From contig OZ244207.1 of the NCBI GenBank assembly GCA_965216875.1, positions 224,001 through 288,000 of the forward strand: DNA of 64,000 nucleotides. Reading direction: 5' to 3'. Position 1 is the first letter of the stretch, and every line of letters begins with the position of its first letter. This document shows positions 12,001 through 24,000 of the stretch, one piece after another. The stretch comes from Rubripirellula sp. (GTDB lineage Bacteria; Planctomycetota; Planctomycetia; Pirellulales; Pirellulaceae). Position numbers: made by a program.

Positions 12001-15000
12001 CCAGGCGAACGAAACACAACAGCAGCGCCGCAGCCAGCTGGCCCTGAACCAGGCCCCGTGTACTTGCAGAATCATGGCAACCCCGTCCGCTACCGCAACA
12101 TCTGGGTCGTCAAAAAAGACGAGTGACGTAGACGTAGGCCGGATCAAGGAGCGACAGCGACACAGATCCGGCACGCTGAGCAGACGGCGCTAGCCGAGGG
12201 CCCAACGCTCAATCTTCCGCAATCGTTGTAGGCCGGATCAAGGAGCGACAGCGACACAGATCCGGCACGCTCCACCGAAGACTAAGCCAGAAGGTGGACG
12301 AGTGCCAATGAGCCGCGACCGCGTAAGCGGCCGGGCCCTGTCCACTCTTTCGTGGCCAATCTCTTTTCCCAACGTTCGCCACACTCCTGAGCCGACGGCG
12401 CTAGCCGCGGGCCCTACGCTCAATCTTCCGCAATCGTTGTAGGCCGGATCAAGGAGCGACAGCGACACAGATCCGGCACGCTCCACCGAAGACTAAACCA
12501 GAAGGTGGACGAGTGCCAATGAGCCGCGAACGCGTAAGCGGCCAGGCCCTGTCCACTCTTTCGTGGCCAATCTCTTTTCCTAACGTTCGCCACACTCCTG
12601 AGCCGACGGCGCTAGCCGCGGGCCCTGCCCTCAATCTTCCGCAATCGTTGTAGGCCGGATCAAGGAGCGACAGCGACACAGATCCGGCACGCTCCACCGA
12701 AGACTAAACCAGAAGGTGGACGAGTGCCAATGAGCCGCGACCGCGTAAGCGGCCGGGCCCTGTCCACTCTTTCGTGGCCAATCTCTTTTCCTAACGTTCG
12801 CCACACTCCTGAGCCGACGGCGCTAGCCGCGGGCCCTACGCTCAATCTTCCGCAATCGTTGTAGGCCGGATTAAGGAGCGACAGCGACACAGATCCGGCA
12901 CGCTCCACCGAAGACTAAACCAGAAGTTGGACGAGTGCCAATGAGCCGCGAATGCGTAAGCGGCCGGGCCCCATCCACTCTTTGTGTCTTCTCGTGTTTT
13001 TCGTGGCCCATCTTCCCACAAGAACCTCAGCACCATTCGTCCAATTCGATCGATTCGTGGTTCGTCATTGTCAAAAAGCACAACAAGTTCAGCGCGAAAA
13101 TCCTTAAACATTTCTTGTTGTGTTGTTCGTGCCCAATCATTCAACAAGAAGAGTGATCCCTGCGCGATCCAAAATTTGACAACCCAAATGTCAACGGCGA
13201 GAATGCCCCCGAAGTGGTTGCCACCTAACCGGTGAGAATGCTGGGGCGACCAGTGAGAATACGAGGATCAACGCGCGCGTCACCAACCGTACCGAAGGTC
13301 CACTCAGTGAGAATAACCAGCACGACGTATTCTCACCTGTCCAACAGCTGATAAATAAGTTATTTGGACTAACCTCCTTGCGAGTGCGCTTCTCAATCAC
13401 TGCTTTGCTCGTGTTGCCTATCGCGGCAGCATTCACGTACGCGTTGTGGTTACGCCTTGCTAATTGGGGACCGCCTGAGAGGAAGACATGCATTGCACAC
13501 GAACACTCCGTCGGACTGGTGCGGGGTTTTGATACTCAAGATTGGGGCCACCACGACGTTGAGCCGGGACAGGGCACTTATCTCACAGGGCACTTATCTC
13601 TATGTTCGAATCTACGGATTGCTGAGCACGACAACGGACAGCACTTCCTATTTGGATTTGGGACTCCAACTTCCCGCGAACGTTGAAGCCGGACAAACGT
13701 TTACCTGTACGCCAGCTAAACGCGCACGCGCAGTATCCGAAGTCGATGTTAACGGCGACTCACTATCGAAACTCACGGAAGGGGAATTCGCTATATTCGG
13801 GTATGCGTACCCGCGTACCGGTTGGTTAGTTTCAGGTTCGAAGGTGACGGCCAGAGTCGCGATCGAACGCATTTCGCGAAAACGGATGTATGCCCAAATC
13901 CAACTTGCTGGTCAATTTGCCCCCGATCTCGGTCCACTTAATATTGATCGGACATTGGTTTTTGATCGCGACCTGGCGAATTCCAAATAACCAAGCCATG
14001 AACCGGAGATCGCCATAGCGCGATTGCTGATGGCAACCACATTGGGCGATCCCGGTTATGGCCAACGTTCGCCAACACAAAGCCTCAAACTGCGATTGAT
14101 GACCGAACATCGATTGTCGACACAAGATGTGCTCGATTTCTTCCGCGAGTTGCCTCAACACCGTGGTTGTTCGGTAGACGAACTTGACGCCGTTGAGAAT
14201 CAGCTAGCGGTATCACTACCGCAGTTATATCGCGACATGATGCTGCTTGACGCATATCGCCTCTACAACACTGAAATCTTCGTCCCTGTTTCCGAATTGC
14301 ACGAGTGGACACGGACTGCACCCGACGACTTCCATCGCGGTACGATCTGGACACTCTCTCCGAGTGACGTGATCTTTGCGGTTGCCCCCGGTGCAGAGGA
14401 CAACTACTACTTTTCCGCAGACGGGACTGACGACCCGCCGGTGTACGGCTTGTCCCTGAATACAAGCAATCCTTCGACGCCGAATGTTGTCGCTGATACA
14501 CTATCCTTCTTCACTGCTGAGATTCTCAGGTCGTCCCTGAGACTCTAGCGTTACTGAACTGGCGAACCATGAAATGCACGGGAGGACGGGAGTCGCGTTT
14601 TTTAGTCTGCTTGCAAGCCTTTCGCCCGTCCCCCGTGATTTCTTTCGTTCGCCGATGCAATGAACAACTCCTTTTCATTTGTCGTCGTGTTCGGATTACT
14701 CGCATTTGTGTCCGGCTGCAGCGACGCGTCGAGAACCGACGAGCAATACCTTGCTGACTGGCGGAACGCCGAATCTAAAAGCAACGTTTTGCATGAGGGT
14801 GGCACCTGGCATTTCGAATTTGTGTCTGTTCGCCTGTACCGCCACAACTGGGATAACCAATATATCGAATTTCCAATCCTATCGGCGGGGAAGCTAAGTG
14901 AAACCCGTGAACCGAAGGAAGGGATCTTGCTGAGTCCTAGTCAGGTCGACCGCCTAGAAGCAGCAGTAACCGGATCCCACGCAGACACTGGAATCGCATT

Positions 15001-21000: not shown

Positions 21001-24000
21001 TGCTTTCGCGCGTCAACCGATACTCCGGCGAATTCATCACGCATTCTTACGTCCGTTACTGCTACGTCGTTATCGTCTCGAACATGGATGGTGACCTGGC
21101 AACATTTGCCGTGGCTGTGGCACACCGATACGATGGAAAGTGTTGAGCAATGGAAGACCAACCCCGCTGCAGGCGGCGAATCATCGCGTGCACACGAAGG
21201 CCTGTTGGTTCGTTTGCTCAAATGGAAAGTCAACTCACGAGCCTCGGTGACGGGGCGTTCATCGAATGAGAACAGGCCTTGGCAGATGCAATAGAAAATC
21301 GATTCAGGCCGCGTTACAGCTTGCTTCTGTTTTGCCTTGTCTGTTTACTGATCTCAATGCTTGTCGCCTACACTGGAGTCTTGAGGCAGATCACTCCTCC
21401 GGCACATGAATTTGTTGGCTTTCCAGCCGATGCGCCACGCCAAGACGGTTTCATCGCTCCGGGACAGCTAACGCATGTTGTCAAGCAAGATGTTTTCGCT
21501 CCAAATGGATTTGATGTGCGTCTGACAGTTCGCATTCAGCTGAACCATGATCGCGTTTTTTCACATTCCATCGACGGATGCCTAATGGAAATCGAGCATG
21601 TCAGCTATAGCCTTTACGACAGCCTGTCGGTCGGTGATCCGACGTTCGTGGAGGAGTTTGTCGCGGGTGAGCTCACGCGATTCAATGGCACGTCGGCTGT
21701 CCGATCCGTTGAGCTGTTAGACTTTAAGACACTTCCAGCACCGGGAACGAACTCCGGTGGCTCGGCAAACTCCATGGTCATCGATGAACCATCCGATGCA
21801 CCGAAGGACCGAACGTCGCGTTCTGAAGATGGAAAATCAATCGCCGGTCCTCGGTGATCGCGTGCGTTACCCATGGTGAGATTTTGTTGAGACTCTTGAT
21901 TCTTCTTGCAGTTCCGCTTTGTGTGTTGGGGTGTACGACGGTCAGATCCCCCAAATTCAAGGTTGATACTCGCGACGAGATGCATCATGCAATCGTTGAT
22001 GCGATACCTACGGGGACCTCAGTCAAGCATGCGACGGAAATCATGGAATCCGCTGGTTTTGACTGCGTTTTCATCGAGTCAGGAAGTTTTTCTGAGGACG
22101 CAGGGATCATTGGCGATGAACGCGACTACCCATTCGTAAAAGACGCACGATTTCTTAAGTGCACGCGCATAGACAGCACAGGAATGTTGACGTCAAATAG
22201 TTGGTGAGCGTAGCTGGCTACGGGAGGAGGTTTGGTGCGTGCAAGCACACACCCTACTTTCTGATGACGGGGGCCAGGTAGATATCTCGGTACTTCACGT
22301 TCGTGTGATCACCTTGCAGATGAATGGGCCCTGGTTGGGTTGGGTCGGTGAAGACGGCACCACCGGTTGGCCCAGGAACCGGTTGATTGTCGATCACTTT
22401 TTCGCCGTTTAAGACAACGGTGACGTGGCGATCAACCAGCGTCAAATCGTAGGTCTGCCACTGCCCGCCTGCGCGGCCTGCATTTTTCGACGGTGGGATG
22501 CTGCCGAAAATCGCGCCGACCCCTTGGATGCCCTGCATCCGACTGTCGCGATCAACCACTTGCGCTTCATACATGCCGCGTAGGTAGACGCCACTGTTGC
22601 GATCTTTTTCGACCAGGAATTCGATGTGCAACCAGAAGTCTTCAAAGACCGCTTCGGTGCGAAGATTCGCGTACGCGCCGGTCGCGCTGAAGTCGGTCTT
22701 GGGTGTCGTGTTCACAAGCTGGCCGTCTTTCACGCTCCAGCCGTTGATCTTATCGGACTCGTGCGGCCGCCAGCCTGTCAGGTCTTTGCCGTTGAAAAGC
22801 GAAATGGGATGCCCGAACCGAACCTTCGATAGATCGGGAGGTGTTGACGGCATCGGTGGGATCTTTTTTCCCTTCAGCCGATCCCGTTTCACCGTTCCAT
22901 CTGGCGAAACCGCTTTGATTTCTCCGACGAGTGCTCCATCGACAAGCATCACTTGTACTGTTTTGGTGTCTTTCTGCTTTCGGTTTTGGCGAAGCGTGAA
23001 GGACAACTGTCCTTGCGAATGCTTGACGTCTTGATGAGGTCCGTCGGGCCCGACGTGCAATCGCATTTTGACAACCGGGGCGCCATCGGATTCCGTGATG
23101 CTTAACCATGCTGGCGTGCCCGATTCCAAAGTGATAGACCAATCGCCAATCAGGTCGTCTGCCGATGCGGACAGTCCGAACGAACAAGCAAGCAGGACGC
23201 AACCAAGGACGTTTCGAATGGGCAAGTGATTCATGGTGTGGTGGCTTTTTGAGAAACGCAAACTCGATGACGACCAAACCCCGGCTACATCATCATGGCT
23301 CGCACGAGGGCAAGCAAGCTGTTACTGAGATCAAGGCCATCATTTCCCACGCAGCGCGAGCGTCACCAAAATGGGACGATGGTCTGATGCAACTTTTTCT
23401 TCGAGCACTTGTACGTTCTTGACCATCCAACGATTCGCGGGTCGGAAGAGTACAAAGTCGATTTGAAGGTTCGGCTGCTGTGACGGGTAGGTCGGCATTT
23501 CTTCGTCACCGGCAATCGACCACTGCTTTGAAAGCTCCAAGAGGGTGTCGCTTGACCGAGTGTCGTTCAAGTCGCCAGCCAGGATTGCGAGCGACGAATC
23601 GCTGTTGATCCATTGGTTGATCTCGACTGCCGAAGCAATCCGCTCGCGATCGTTGCTGCGGTGATCAAAGTGTGTCGCCATGAATTGGAGTGGTTCGCTA
23701 CCAACCAAACCATTGATCGTTGCATCAATCACTCCTCGCTGCTCGCCATTGTCGAAGCTTGGAAGCATGCGGTTCTCGGATGCAGTGATTGGCAATCGCG
23801 ACAGCAAGGCGTTGCCGTAGTGGCCGCCTTGGAGCGGGATGTTTGCACCATAGACCGACGACATGCCAGTCAACTCGGCAAGCATGCGTGGCTGGTCCAC
23901 GTTGCCACTGCGTTTGACTTTGTTGTCGACTTCCTGCAAGGCGACCAAGTCGGGCTTGGCCGCACGAATCACCTTTGCCAACCGCTCGAGATCGAGCTTG

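Follow-up and report, generated by a model that had tools for sequence, protein, structure and literature searches.

INTRODUCTION

The closest described counterparts of the locus reported here are the rAID-1 arrays of Bacteroidales. According to the accessible part of that account, they share with it an associated recombinase, co-directional genes, repeated intergenic sites and orphan immunity genes; the rAID-1 immunity genes are 32-91% identical to their cognate copies, and some have been shown to protect (10.1101/471110). Arrays of orphan immunity genes are also known from the T6SS (type VI secretion system) clusters of Vibrio cholerae, and the authors themselves, in the text available to us, drew the analogy to integrons (PMC5361080). 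Isolated or tandem SUKH genes have been proposed to protect against non-self toxins, and an expansion of SUKH has been noted in one planctomycete, Gemmata, with 21 paralogs; in the portion of that paper available, the word "integron" was not found and the one match to "integr" concerns herpesviruses (PMC3113570).

Planctomycetes are, from the available part of the source, known to carry integrons (PMC2674596), and the accessible text on integron "biobanks" reports defense cargo in the form of anti-phage and toxin-antitoxin (TA) systems (10.1101/2024.07.02.601686). Work on plant-microbiome cassettes mentions immunity proteins in one phrase, as plant-interaction effectors; its accessible sections contain no mention of SUKH or Smi1, and no orphan/cognate analysis was found there (PMC11089894). 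The available supplements of PMC7370490 contain no SUKH or Imm term, although the full table is possibly elsewhere. Our literature search found no paper describing orphan immunity genes on a canonical IntI/attC platform in the manner of rAID-1.

RESULTS

The window carries an integron array with its own leader

The window, i.e., the whole 64,000-nucleotide stretch of a Rubripirellula sp. genome that was analyzed, contains 14 attC sites by covariance model, all at 13985-21872; the rest of the 64 kb has none. Genome-wide there are 87 attC profile matches, grouped in four clusters (arrays A to D, A being that of the window), and the reversed genome has none. The arrays make up 0.7% of the genome, and their genes are co-directional, with a GC content of 53-54% versus 56% for the genome. 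Stem pairing in attC is 92%, with covariation of 0.60 versus 0.15 in shuffled controls; the AAC/GTT pairs are invariant because the 54 attC sites were selected for having them. Cassette-specific core complementarity is perfect at 43 of 54 junctions (shuffled, 5.2; maximum, 13). Only one IntI gene in the genome exceeds the cut-off, at C1:1815402 (TIGR02249, 414 bits; cut-off, 265), where it is divergent from array C, and none was found beside array A. The window thus holds a true integron array with attC sites, attI and a promoter-like leader, and both the cassette anatomy and the recombinational origin of the genes can be read directly from it. The core complementarity and the IntI gene rule out REP or CRISPR-like repeats, and an Rfam scan of the array gave no meaningful match.

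The array leader, comprising the promoter region and attI (13165..13361; this and all the following window features are on the plus strand), is common to all four arrays: over ~200 bp, the array-A copy is 88-92% identical to the leaders of arrays B, D and the IntI-bearing C. A putative cassette promoter, Pc (TTGACA, 17 nt, GAGAAT; 13176..13204), agrees with the consensus at 10 of 12 positions, and both of its hexamers are retained in all four leaders; a promoter scan gave fewer sites than in shuffled sequences, and the assignment of Pc rests on consensus, position and conservation. The attI core (13350..13365) has its crossover at G13359/T13360, and identity to the array-C leader stops here. 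The 7 nt of this core are exactly complementary to the attC core of the first cassette (13984-13990). The GTT crossover is present in leaders A, B and C and lost in D.

Cassette 1 (A0; 13378..13990) is an unnamed, membrane-anchored gene without a Pfam match, split across two frames, each of which matches array-C cassette C10 at 34%. It is followed by attC 1 (13985..14073; covariance model [CM] score, 78.6 bits) and by cassette 2 (A1; 14096..14548), a SUKH (SMI1_KNR4) orphan immunity gene (Pfam E 3e-7) with perfect core complementarity, bounded downstream by attC 2 (14561..14653; 79.9 bits). Cassettes 3-10 (14660..19187) are eight single genes, mostly unnamed, whose products are lipoproteins or membrane proteins, one CrtO-like protein and two soluble acidic proteins; they are separated by attC 3-9 (at 15198, 15747, 16336, 16929, 17599, 18309 and 18719), and core complementarity is perfect at the 6 junctions scored. 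Next comes a truncated attC, a partial match, fused to a ~190-bp repeat (19229..19436); matches to this repeat, at 74-78%, stand beside the leaders of A, B and D and behind IntI, so that its other copies adjoin leaders. Beyond attC 10 (19471..19560; 63.9 bits) lie the second SUKH orphan immunity gene, A10 (SUKH_6/SMI1_KNR4; 19579..20028; SUKH_6 Pfam E 3e-12), attC 11 (20046..20140; 46.5 bits), and the Imm7 orphan immunity gene, A11 (20171..20584; Pfam E 9e-26). A10 and Imm7 are the 11th and 12th genes behind the promoter. In attC 12 (20588..20678; 75.6 bits) CAC replaces the otherwise conserved AAC, and excision of the Imm7 cassette may therefore be impaired. The array ends with three unnamed genes (20732..22207), among which lie attC 13 (21175-21263) and attC 14 (21783-21872); no attC was found 3' of the final gene. 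By Pfam scan, immunity genes account for 3 of the 16 window ORFs. Decay has affected several cassettes and attC sites.

All SUKH genes over the cut-off, and Imm7, are cassettes

A preliminary description of this DNA had held that every SUKH gene of the genome, together with Imm7, is an attC-bounded cassette, and genome-wide searches bear this out. Five SUKH genes (four distinct) exceed the Pfam cut-off, at 26-48 bits, each as a single-gene cassette; three of them are among the 79 ORFs of the other arrays, and the one in array D has a degenerate downstream attC (E 0.1). Family searches of the whole genome gave four SMI1_KNR4 matches over the cut-off, one SUKH-3 and four SUKH_6, every one of them within array A, C or D, as had been claimed for SUKH in general; a match outside the arrays, to a 467-aa ORF at C1:416112-417512, is below threshold (SMI1_KNR4, 17-20 bits; cut-off, 25.4). 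The same description had spread the immunity genes over three arrays, which is correct for the genes, but the genome has four arrays, B being without a named immunity gene.

It had also noted one SUKH cassette occurring identically in two arrays. Indeed, A1 has a copy at C1:1813743-1814195 with 587/587 nt identical, and the cassette is second behind attI in both arrays, A and C; this identity implies a recent copying between arrays. In reads possibly from the source sample, the contig with the duplicated cassette has ~2x the depth of its neighbors, and this double depth and the different flanks rule out an assembly artefact. Candidate cassette joints in the same data were accounted for by the genome's other arrays. 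In a check for RNA reads, the one run with a small share of this genome resembles DNA of it, and another run gave no coverage.

Partner toxins are absent from the genome and present elsewhere

No toxin or TA domain was found among the 95 array ORFs scanned, in agreement with the earlier statement that no toxin gene lies beside the immunity cassettes; the cassette SUKH proteins as antitoxins of neighboring cassette toxins are ruled out on the same ground. Tox-REase-3 and LHH had no match in the genome (the WHH search was without a control that gave a signal), nor had seven partner toxin C-termini. The three RHS proteins previously listed were recovered as three Rhs cores, one of which is adjoined by Imm35, outside the arrays; the T6SS marker, a ClpV-like gene, is just under the cut-off (824 versus 885 bits). 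The partner toxins identified in kin and other phyla are thus absent here, which supports the orphan status of the cassette immunity genes.

Toxin-adjacent relatives occur in other genomes. A10 shares 28% identity with a SUKH gene that, in a genome of the family (G058), immediately follows a PT-HINT toxin; it is the only one of the four distinct SUKH genes with a detectable toxin-adjacent relative, and was the sole cassette matching a first toxin-locus database of 95 loci. For Imm7, we report here relatives behind Tox-REase-3, including two family members: 7 of 80 Imm7 loci are directly behind this toxin, and of 251 family genomes 2 have the adjacent pair. Firmicute and Actinobacterial copies (36-42%) resemble the Imm7 cassette more than the cognate copies of its kin do (31-32%). 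In many records the subfamily of this cassette shows 55-68% identity at an unchanging length of ~136 aa. Winogradskyella and Aquimarina loci also have arrays near Imm7; these were left uncounted, since they may be of a rAID-like type of Bacteroidota and not IntI arrays.

For three unnamed cassettes (C11, D20b and, less strongly, D4), relatives immediately follow toxin-like C-termini, and some of these cassettes count as immunity genes by position. C11 shares 44% identity (E 6e-34) with a gene behind a HINT-toxin C-terminus in the Rhs toxin-immunity array of G279. In a search over 251 phylum genomes it was found in this genome (G000) only; the protein database holds only 2 other relatives, and the ESM Atlas gave no usable match (for C18, the Atlas returned unnamed clusters only, under 0.9). 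Of 4 records with relatives of D20b, 2 have these next to a toxin-like C-terminus that the records share, and 2 have them within toxin-immunity runs. For D4, the match is 26% (E 4e-11), to a gene that follows an Rhs. Relatives of DUF7674 and C14 lie within or beside immunity runs; the DUF2251 record and 1 of 2 C14 records are solitary. Plasmid relatives were sought for 12 soluble cassette proteins, and 7 of these had none.

Immunity is one cargo class among several

Immunity is the largest Pfam-named class among the cassettes, as had been proposed, with six members against single copies for every other family. Named immunity genes number 6, or up to 9 with the unnamed candidates, of ~83 cassettes (about 7-11%). 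The other cargo includes FKBP, phosphoesterase, ATP-grasp and TPR proteins; 35 of 96 array ORFs are membrane or secreted (hydrophobic) and 34 of 96 are soluble and acidic. None of 83 cassette proteins exceeded an NCBIfam cut-off, and PADLOC, run on 85, gave one weak phosphoesterase match and left the SUKH and Imm7 genes unmatched. No TA or defense cassette was recognized in this genome.

Of the 95 SUKH matches examined in the family, 21 have flanking attC sites; these come from 13 of the 40 genomes, so the concern that the pattern may be local does not hold. No attC was detected at 72 of the 95 and ~60 are solitary, which means that orphan SUKH genes are common without integrons; some solitary subfamilies are conserved in several relatives. 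Among 89 upstream ORFs scanned, 12 are toxins (WHH, LHH, colicin-DNase or PT-HINT), none of them upstream of an attC-flanked SUKH. Cassette SUKHs are scattered over the tree in many SUKH lineages (23 changes versus 24.8 shuffled, on a quick tree with many long branches). Two of the generic attC detectors built for this work lacked sensitivity, and a third recovered 52% of known sites (score 24); beyond the family, attC status can therefore be given only tentatively. In 185 proteins from IntI-anchored arrays of relatives there are 2 SUKH, no Imm family, 3 ParE and 1 PIN; TA cassettes are commoner than immunity there, alongside GNAT and other cargo. Among 166 cassette proteins of relatives, no clear toxin-adjacent relative was found beyond generic LRR/ankyrin repeats.

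DISCUSSION

We regard it as probable that this is a sedentary integron of a Pirellulales-type planctomycete, as named relatives of the cassette proteins suggest, whose ~83 cassettes include six named and ~3 unnamed orphan polymorphic-toxin immunity genes, held as protection against non-self toxins. One IntI would serve its own array and probably the three satellite arrays in trans, and cassettes near a leader would be transcribed. The small acidic cytoplasmic products may then bind incoming nuclease-type toxin domains delivered by competitors, presumably HNH/WHH/LHH for SUKH and Tox-REase-3 for Imm7, and selection would retain these cassettes as non-self protection; immunity would be one cargo class and would not be what the arrays are for. 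The integron has the look of a general store of genes, with shields against competitors among them. The stockpile of immunity genes envisaged earlier fits neither the 7-11% share here, nor the 2/185 in relatives, nor the third or so of ORFs (35/96) that are membrane or secreted.

Integrons hold accessory genes that are small, single-domain and promoterless. Passive capture, in which abundant, short, harmless, mobile immunity genes drift into cassettes and decay, with no need of a protective role and with their clustering here a local accident, seems unlikely to us, although several observations lean its way: the ~1% immunity share in relatives' arrays, the many family SUKH genes that are solitary and outside arrays, the decayed attC sites, the frameshifted first cassette and a truncated Imm7 in the array of G062. 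Immunity is usually sequence-specific, and the cassettes are only 26-44% identical to toxin-adjacent immunity proteins. The 11th and 12th places of A10 and Imm7, and the closer likeness of Imm7 to Firmicute and Actinobacterial copies, also count against the protective reading. Against drift, all six named genes have intact frames, two arrays have, second behind attI, the same recently copied SUKH cassette, a SUKH leads the cassettes of G062, and the Imm7 subfamily is conserved in sequence and length. Moreover, the immunity share here exceeds that in relatives (6/83 versus 2/185; Fisher p 0.012, or 0.027 with the duplicate counted once, the cassettes being non-independent).

It is improbable that most soluble acidic cassettes are unrecognized immunity genes, which would make the arrays a dedicated, rAID-like store against contact-dependent toxins. 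The 34 soluble acidic ORFs, the lack of recognized TA or defense cassettes, the DUF7674 and C14 contexts and the three unnamed cassettes with toxin-adjacent relatives, found in small databases, would suit such a store, but toxin-adjacent matches were obtained for only 4/96 ORFs (plus one LRR) among ~176 toxin ends, and neither the hydrophobic and enzymatic cargo here nor the TA, GNAT and other cargo of relatives does. Repurposing of cassette SUKH and Imm7 for phage defense, stress response or scaffolds is very improbable: recruitment of SUKH domains into other functions is on record (PMC3113570, available part), 18% of tested unknown V. cholerae cassettes are anti-phage (10.1101/2024.07.02.601686, accessible text) and some solitary SUKH subfamilies are conserved, but PADLOC left these genes unmatched and the only recurrent context found for non-cassette relatives is behind toxins.

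A wider proposition is possible, if doubtful: that in planctomycetes, and perhaps in other phyla too, canonical IntI integrons provide acquired interbacterial defense, with immunity genes from Rhs, CDI and type VII toxin loci of kin and unrelated phyla shuffled behind a promoter, and with 20-40% of unnamed soluble cassettes belonging to immunity families not yet described, C11 and D20b among them. If true, interbacterial defense would join antibiotic and phage resistance as a third protective function of integrons. The function of unnamed sedentary-integron cassettes is a long-standing question, with TA systems and phage defense as partial answers; checking whether relatives stand behind toxins offers an annotation route, and two pairs can be named, Imm7/Tox-REase-3 and C11 with a toxin domain (Rhs/HINT, unnamed) from a family member. 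Should protection be real, the rAID concept would extend beyond gut Bacteroidales to true integrons of environmental bacteria, with immunity borrowed across phyla; should it not, cassette formation would still have drawn repeatedly on toxin-immunity loci.

Comparison with known systems

Integrase-less cassette arrays are termed CALIN/attI arrays. With sedentary chromosomal integrons the present system shares IntI, attI, promoter and attC, mostly unknown cassettes and a defensive minority; it differs in that each of its three satellite arrays retains a promoter/attI leader of its own. The recognizable defense cargo is polymorphic-toxin immunity, with no TA pair detected, unlike that of the reported biobanks. 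Whereas the V. cholerae orphan arrays reflect effector displacement beside a toxin, and the authors state, in the text available, that they have no integrase evidence (PMC5361080), and whereas the SUKH loci in the accessible part of PMC3113570 are isolated or tandem genes, each immunity gene here is a cassette predicted to be excisable individually.

The rAID-1 recombinase is XerD-like, of the B. fragilis BF9343_RS08045 type, whereas the integrase here is an IntI, set apart by profile score and host. The GC criterion for rAID-1 is 41% or less and GC here is 53-54%; rAID-1 arrays are enriched in orphan immunity genes, and the immunity share is 7-11% here and about 1% named in relatives. Further differences from rAID-1 are the attI site, the canonical attC sites, the planctomycete host and a protective role that is predicted only, for a minority of the cargo. 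In both systems, going by the part of the rAID-1 account available, the orphan immunity genes have diverged from their cognate copies. By this comparison, the arrays look as though they work like rAID-1, but on a canonical IntI/attC platform.

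Organization of the cassette arrays

The genome studied here (G000) is a single contig, C1, of 8.26 Mb, and the window covers C1:224001-288000. Window positions 13378-22207 hold 15 small genes, all co-directional, at slightly lower GC (53% versus 56%) and spaced by imperfect ~90-bp palindromes with AAC at the start and GTT at the end. A profile of the cassette site attC, made from 14 window repeats with one refinement, found 87 sites in G000, in four clusters (A, the window array, 14; B, 7; C, 39; D, 27); the reversed genome yielded none. The sole integrase gene, intI (TIGR02249, 414 bits), adjoins array C. 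For 54 distinct attC sites selected for high scores and undamaged cores, pairing in the bottom-strand stem is 92% and covariation 0.60, versus 0.15 when shuffled and at most 0.12 when slid. The four variable bases of the left-end core are the exact complement of the cassette's own attC core at 43 of 54 scored junctions, versus 5.2 (maximum 13) in a shuffled control, which is the footprint of circular cassettes. The four clusters are integron cassette arrays, and the SUKH and Imm7 toxin-immunity genes have been captured in them as single-gene cassettes. Named relatives of the cassette proteins come from Stieleria, Rhodopirellula, Symmachiella and other planctomycetes, which points to a host among the Pirellulales.

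All four arrays open with a ~200-bp leader bearing repeated GTGAGAA motifs (window 13165-13361; C1:1147825-1148035, 1814711-1814944 and 3542178-3542538; 88-92% identity). Inside the window leader lie a sigma-70-like pair, the putative promoter (13176-13204), and the crossover of attI, the array head site (13359/13360). The window array thus has attI and, probably, a promoter, yet lacks an integrase of its own; the single IntI would serve it in trans. The satellite arrays look like duplicated attI platforms, trans-served. Array D still carries 143 bp that match the beginning of the intI region, and its attI no longer has the GTT. Directly upstream of the window leader a 211-bp unit is repeated in tandem about four times (12176-13108; 97% identical); it contains a 44-bp REP-like element that occurs genome-wide, and related pieces lie beside the other arrays. 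At 19229-19436, half an attC is joined to a ~190-bp leader-associated repeat, a gene-less stretch ahead of the next full attC. The array ends at a short element highly repeated in the genome (22230-22262; 137 BLAST matches from the tail region).

Immunity cassettes in G000

We scanned 95 array ORFs (16 window, 79 others, some flanking and probable shadow frames among them) with Pfam. SUKH matched five times and Imm7 once; CrtO, FKBP, TPR, phosphoesterase, ATP-grasp, cytochrome P460, DUF302, DUF2251, DUF4240, DUF6985 and DUF7674 matched singly, and no toxin or TA domain was found in these ORFs. Hydrophobic segments occur in 35 of 96 array ORFs, and 34 are soluble and acidic. The preliminary description had placed every SUKH gene and Imm7 in arrays, and genome-wide searches agree: all above-cut-off SUKH genes and the sole Imm7 lie in A, C and D, while arrays A-D together make up 0.7% of the genome. 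A 467-aa frame outside the arrays (C1:416112-417512), with a weak, sub-threshold N-terminal SMI1_KNR4 match at C1:416352, is possibly a housekeeping SUKH-repeat fusion. The three RHS proteins described earlier were recovered as three Rhs cores, outside the arrays. Imm35, likewise correctly placed outside, lies within an Rhs tail (locus C1:8043001-8063000), where behind the genome's own Rhs (4001-aa frame) come a small gene, a toxin-like fragment, a second small gene and Imm35; this is a conventional toxin with a poly-immunity tail, outside integrons. T6SS support consists of a ClpV-like gene slightly below cut-off.

For the immunity cassettes we find an orphan state, toxin-adjacent relatives and, implied by one duplicated SUKH cassette, recent movement. 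On balance we favor a mechanism in which captured orphan cassettes would be transcribed from the leader, most strongly at the front (A1, window 14096-14548, and its array-C copy), their products would bind incoming nuclease-type toxin domains, and IntI reshuffling would bring forward presumably silent cassettes such as A10 (SUKH_6, 19579-20028) and Imm7 (20171-20584). Passive capture of immunity genes is a distinctly less probable account, though the strongest rival. The identical SUKH cassette reported in two arrays is real: A1 and the array-C copy match at 587/587 positions, each second behind attI, and A1 has about double the contig's depth. Two further array-C cassettes are duplicated (C1:1813235-1813630/1801482-1801877, 100% protein identity; C1:1794013-1794447/1791179-1791613, 97%), so duplication is not peculiar to the SUKH cassette.

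Immunity cassettes in relatives

An SMI1_KNR4 search was positive in 73 of 121 family genomes (~240 matches). We sampled the context of 95 matches at 90 loci in 40 genomes (30 loci automatic, 60 hand-picked for long contigs). By covariance model, 21 had a direct attC flank (13 two-sided), 2 had one attC nearby and 72 had none. In genome G046 (loci L070, L071 and L073) a second attC type lies behind SUKH genes, mostly missed by this G000-built model; because one or more other attC types escape it, 21/95 is a floor. Cassette SUKHs occur in 13 of the 40 genomes examined, which dispels the earlier worry that the pattern is local. WHH, LHH, colicin-DNase or PT-HINT domains occur in 12 of 89 ORFs upstream of SUKH, and in no such case is the SUKH flanked by attC. 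By these counts the family SUKHs comprise 12 cognate, at least 21 cassette and ~60 solitary genes. In a quick tree built from 93 SUKH proteins, the cassette state requires 23 changes versus 24.8 shuffled, and this scatter shows that many SUKH lineages entered cassettes.

Among 121 family genomes, 62 have an IntI above cut-off; integron counts here leave out Flavobacterial loci. We took 40 of the 98 IntI matches listed, for their long contigs, and found 286 attC sites. The set scanned, from 221 intervals of 200-1300 bp, comprised 166 cassettes with a single ORF and 19 chosen among 45 of low coverage; the census excludes first cassettes and longer intervals, hence the SUKH and truncated Imm7 of genome G062. 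In that array (L109, G062:C53) IntI is co-oriented with the cassettes, SUKH first and the truncated Imm7 later. The 185 proteins included SUKH (2), ParE (3), PIN (1), UPF0167 (3; L105, L122, L123), 23S rRNA-IVP (3; L118, L143), GNAT (2) and ankyrin (2), but no Imm family; about three quarters had no family name. UPF0167 includes CbrC, a colicin-tolerance protein, and these cassettes are possibly another interbacterial defense cargo. At three loci (L116, L119, L136), ~465-bp cassettes recur in runs and are poorly covered by ORFs.

Immunity had been called the largest named cassette class. That stands for G000 alone, as the census shows. The named share, 6/~83 in G000 versus 2/185 in relatives, gives a Fisher p of 0.012, or 0.027 with the duplicate SUKH counted once, although cassettes are not independent; with ~3 positional candidates, immunity reaches 7-11% of the G000 tally. 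A dedicated immunity stockpile is an improbable reading of these arrays.

Toxin partners and unnamed candidate immunity genes

We aligned Imm7 with 37 of 120 relatives listed and retrieved the best 80 of 225 loci. Among these, Imm7 (36-42% identity) lies directly behind Tox-REase-3 at seven loci, in Paenibacillus, Vallitalea, Clostridium and Actinomadura, three of the seven with a WXG100-type carrier; 16 of 71 upstream ORFs were domain-scanned and the remainder judged from their ends alone. The closest relative among the 80 (60%) is itself an attC-array gene, in a Planctomycetaceae genome, and most others are solitary. Across 251 family genomes, Imm7 and Tox-REase-3 each occur in three, as an adjacent pair in G062, host of the L109 array, and G279 (31-32% to G000 Imm7); this search found no Tox-REase-3 in G000.

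We also assembled 1.29 Mb of Rhs, HINT and toxin loci, 230 in all with ~176 distinct toxin-like ends, and searched them with 96 cassette proteins from G000 and 166 from relatives. Because the Imm7 and SUKH loci had been added to this set by their own queries, their matches are not independent. The unnamed cassette C11 of array C (C1:1807797-1808201) matched (44%, E 6e-34) a gene separated by 4 bp from the HINT-toxin end that precedes it. The match lies in an Rhs array of G279 (L403, G279:C18:9501-17000) with three toxin-immunity modules. In the final module the toxin domain has no Pfam family; this domain has 46 other relatives, at Rhs, HINT and portal C-termini, and conserved G-x-Y, R and E residues, which resemble those of a GIY-YIG nuclease. 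For D4 of array D the match (26%, E 4e-11) was to a gene with a membrane anchor that follows an Rhs, C16 gave generic LRR matches, and the relatives' 166 proteins gave LRR, ankyrin and unrelated matches alone. Of 12 soluble cassette proteins compared with plasmid records, five had matches and seven had none. D20b (C1:3531183-3531656), with decayed attC-like sites seen by eye on either side, has relatives in seven records, of which four were examined. In two it lies flush behind ORFs sharing a 43-residue C-terminus (58%), whose toxin nature is presumptive since these ORFs have no Pfam family. A third shows it surrounded by CDI immunity and barstar genes, and in the fourth it belongs to a run that follows a haemagglutinin-repeat protein and includes a DUF7674 gene. 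Relatives of C14 were one after a YezG immunity gene and one solitary; for DUF2251, one record of 832 was examined, and there the gene is solitary. Seven partner C-termini had no match in G000. Repurposed domains are a very remote reading of these cassettes. For the favored mechanism of leader-transcribed orphan immunity, the main weakness is low identity to cognate immunity proteins: cassette SUKHs reach at best ~24-31% to toxin-adjacent copies, in full-length alignments.

Comparison with known systems

The immunity cassettes are a real feature, general in part. Orphan immunity arrays are established as an idea, and the immunity share here is small, but cassette function becomes directly testable through the canonical IntI/attC setting, the link across phyla between Imm7 and Tox-REase-3, and the unnamed immunity cassettes. 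Zhang et al. 2011 (PMC3113570) set isolated SUKH proteins against non-self toxins, Kirchberger et al. (PMC5361080) liken orphan-immunity arrays to integrons by analogy alone, and Ghaly et al. 2024 (PMC11089894) name "immunity proteins" among cassette effectors. TA, GST and GNAT dominate the cassettes of Buongermino Pereira et al., in whose main text and supplements, so far as seen, the word "immunity" was not found. Anti-phage cassettes (Darracq et al., 10.1101/2024.07.02.601686), an integron without named immunity genes in the portions seen (Kinch et al., PMC10734457), and Planctomycetes with integrons and MccF cassettes (ACID) are also described. Within full texts, excluding subscription papers and bioRxiv supplements, we found no report that presents SUKH/Imm genes in IntI/attC cassettes as a defense from polymorphic toxins. 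The nearest system is rAID-1, the Bacteroidales orphan-immunity arrays, described as integron-like, with genes at 32-91% identity, some of which protected (Ross et al., 10.1101/471110). The arrays here would work in the same manner; unlike rAID-1, they form a canonical integron and are not members of rAID-1.
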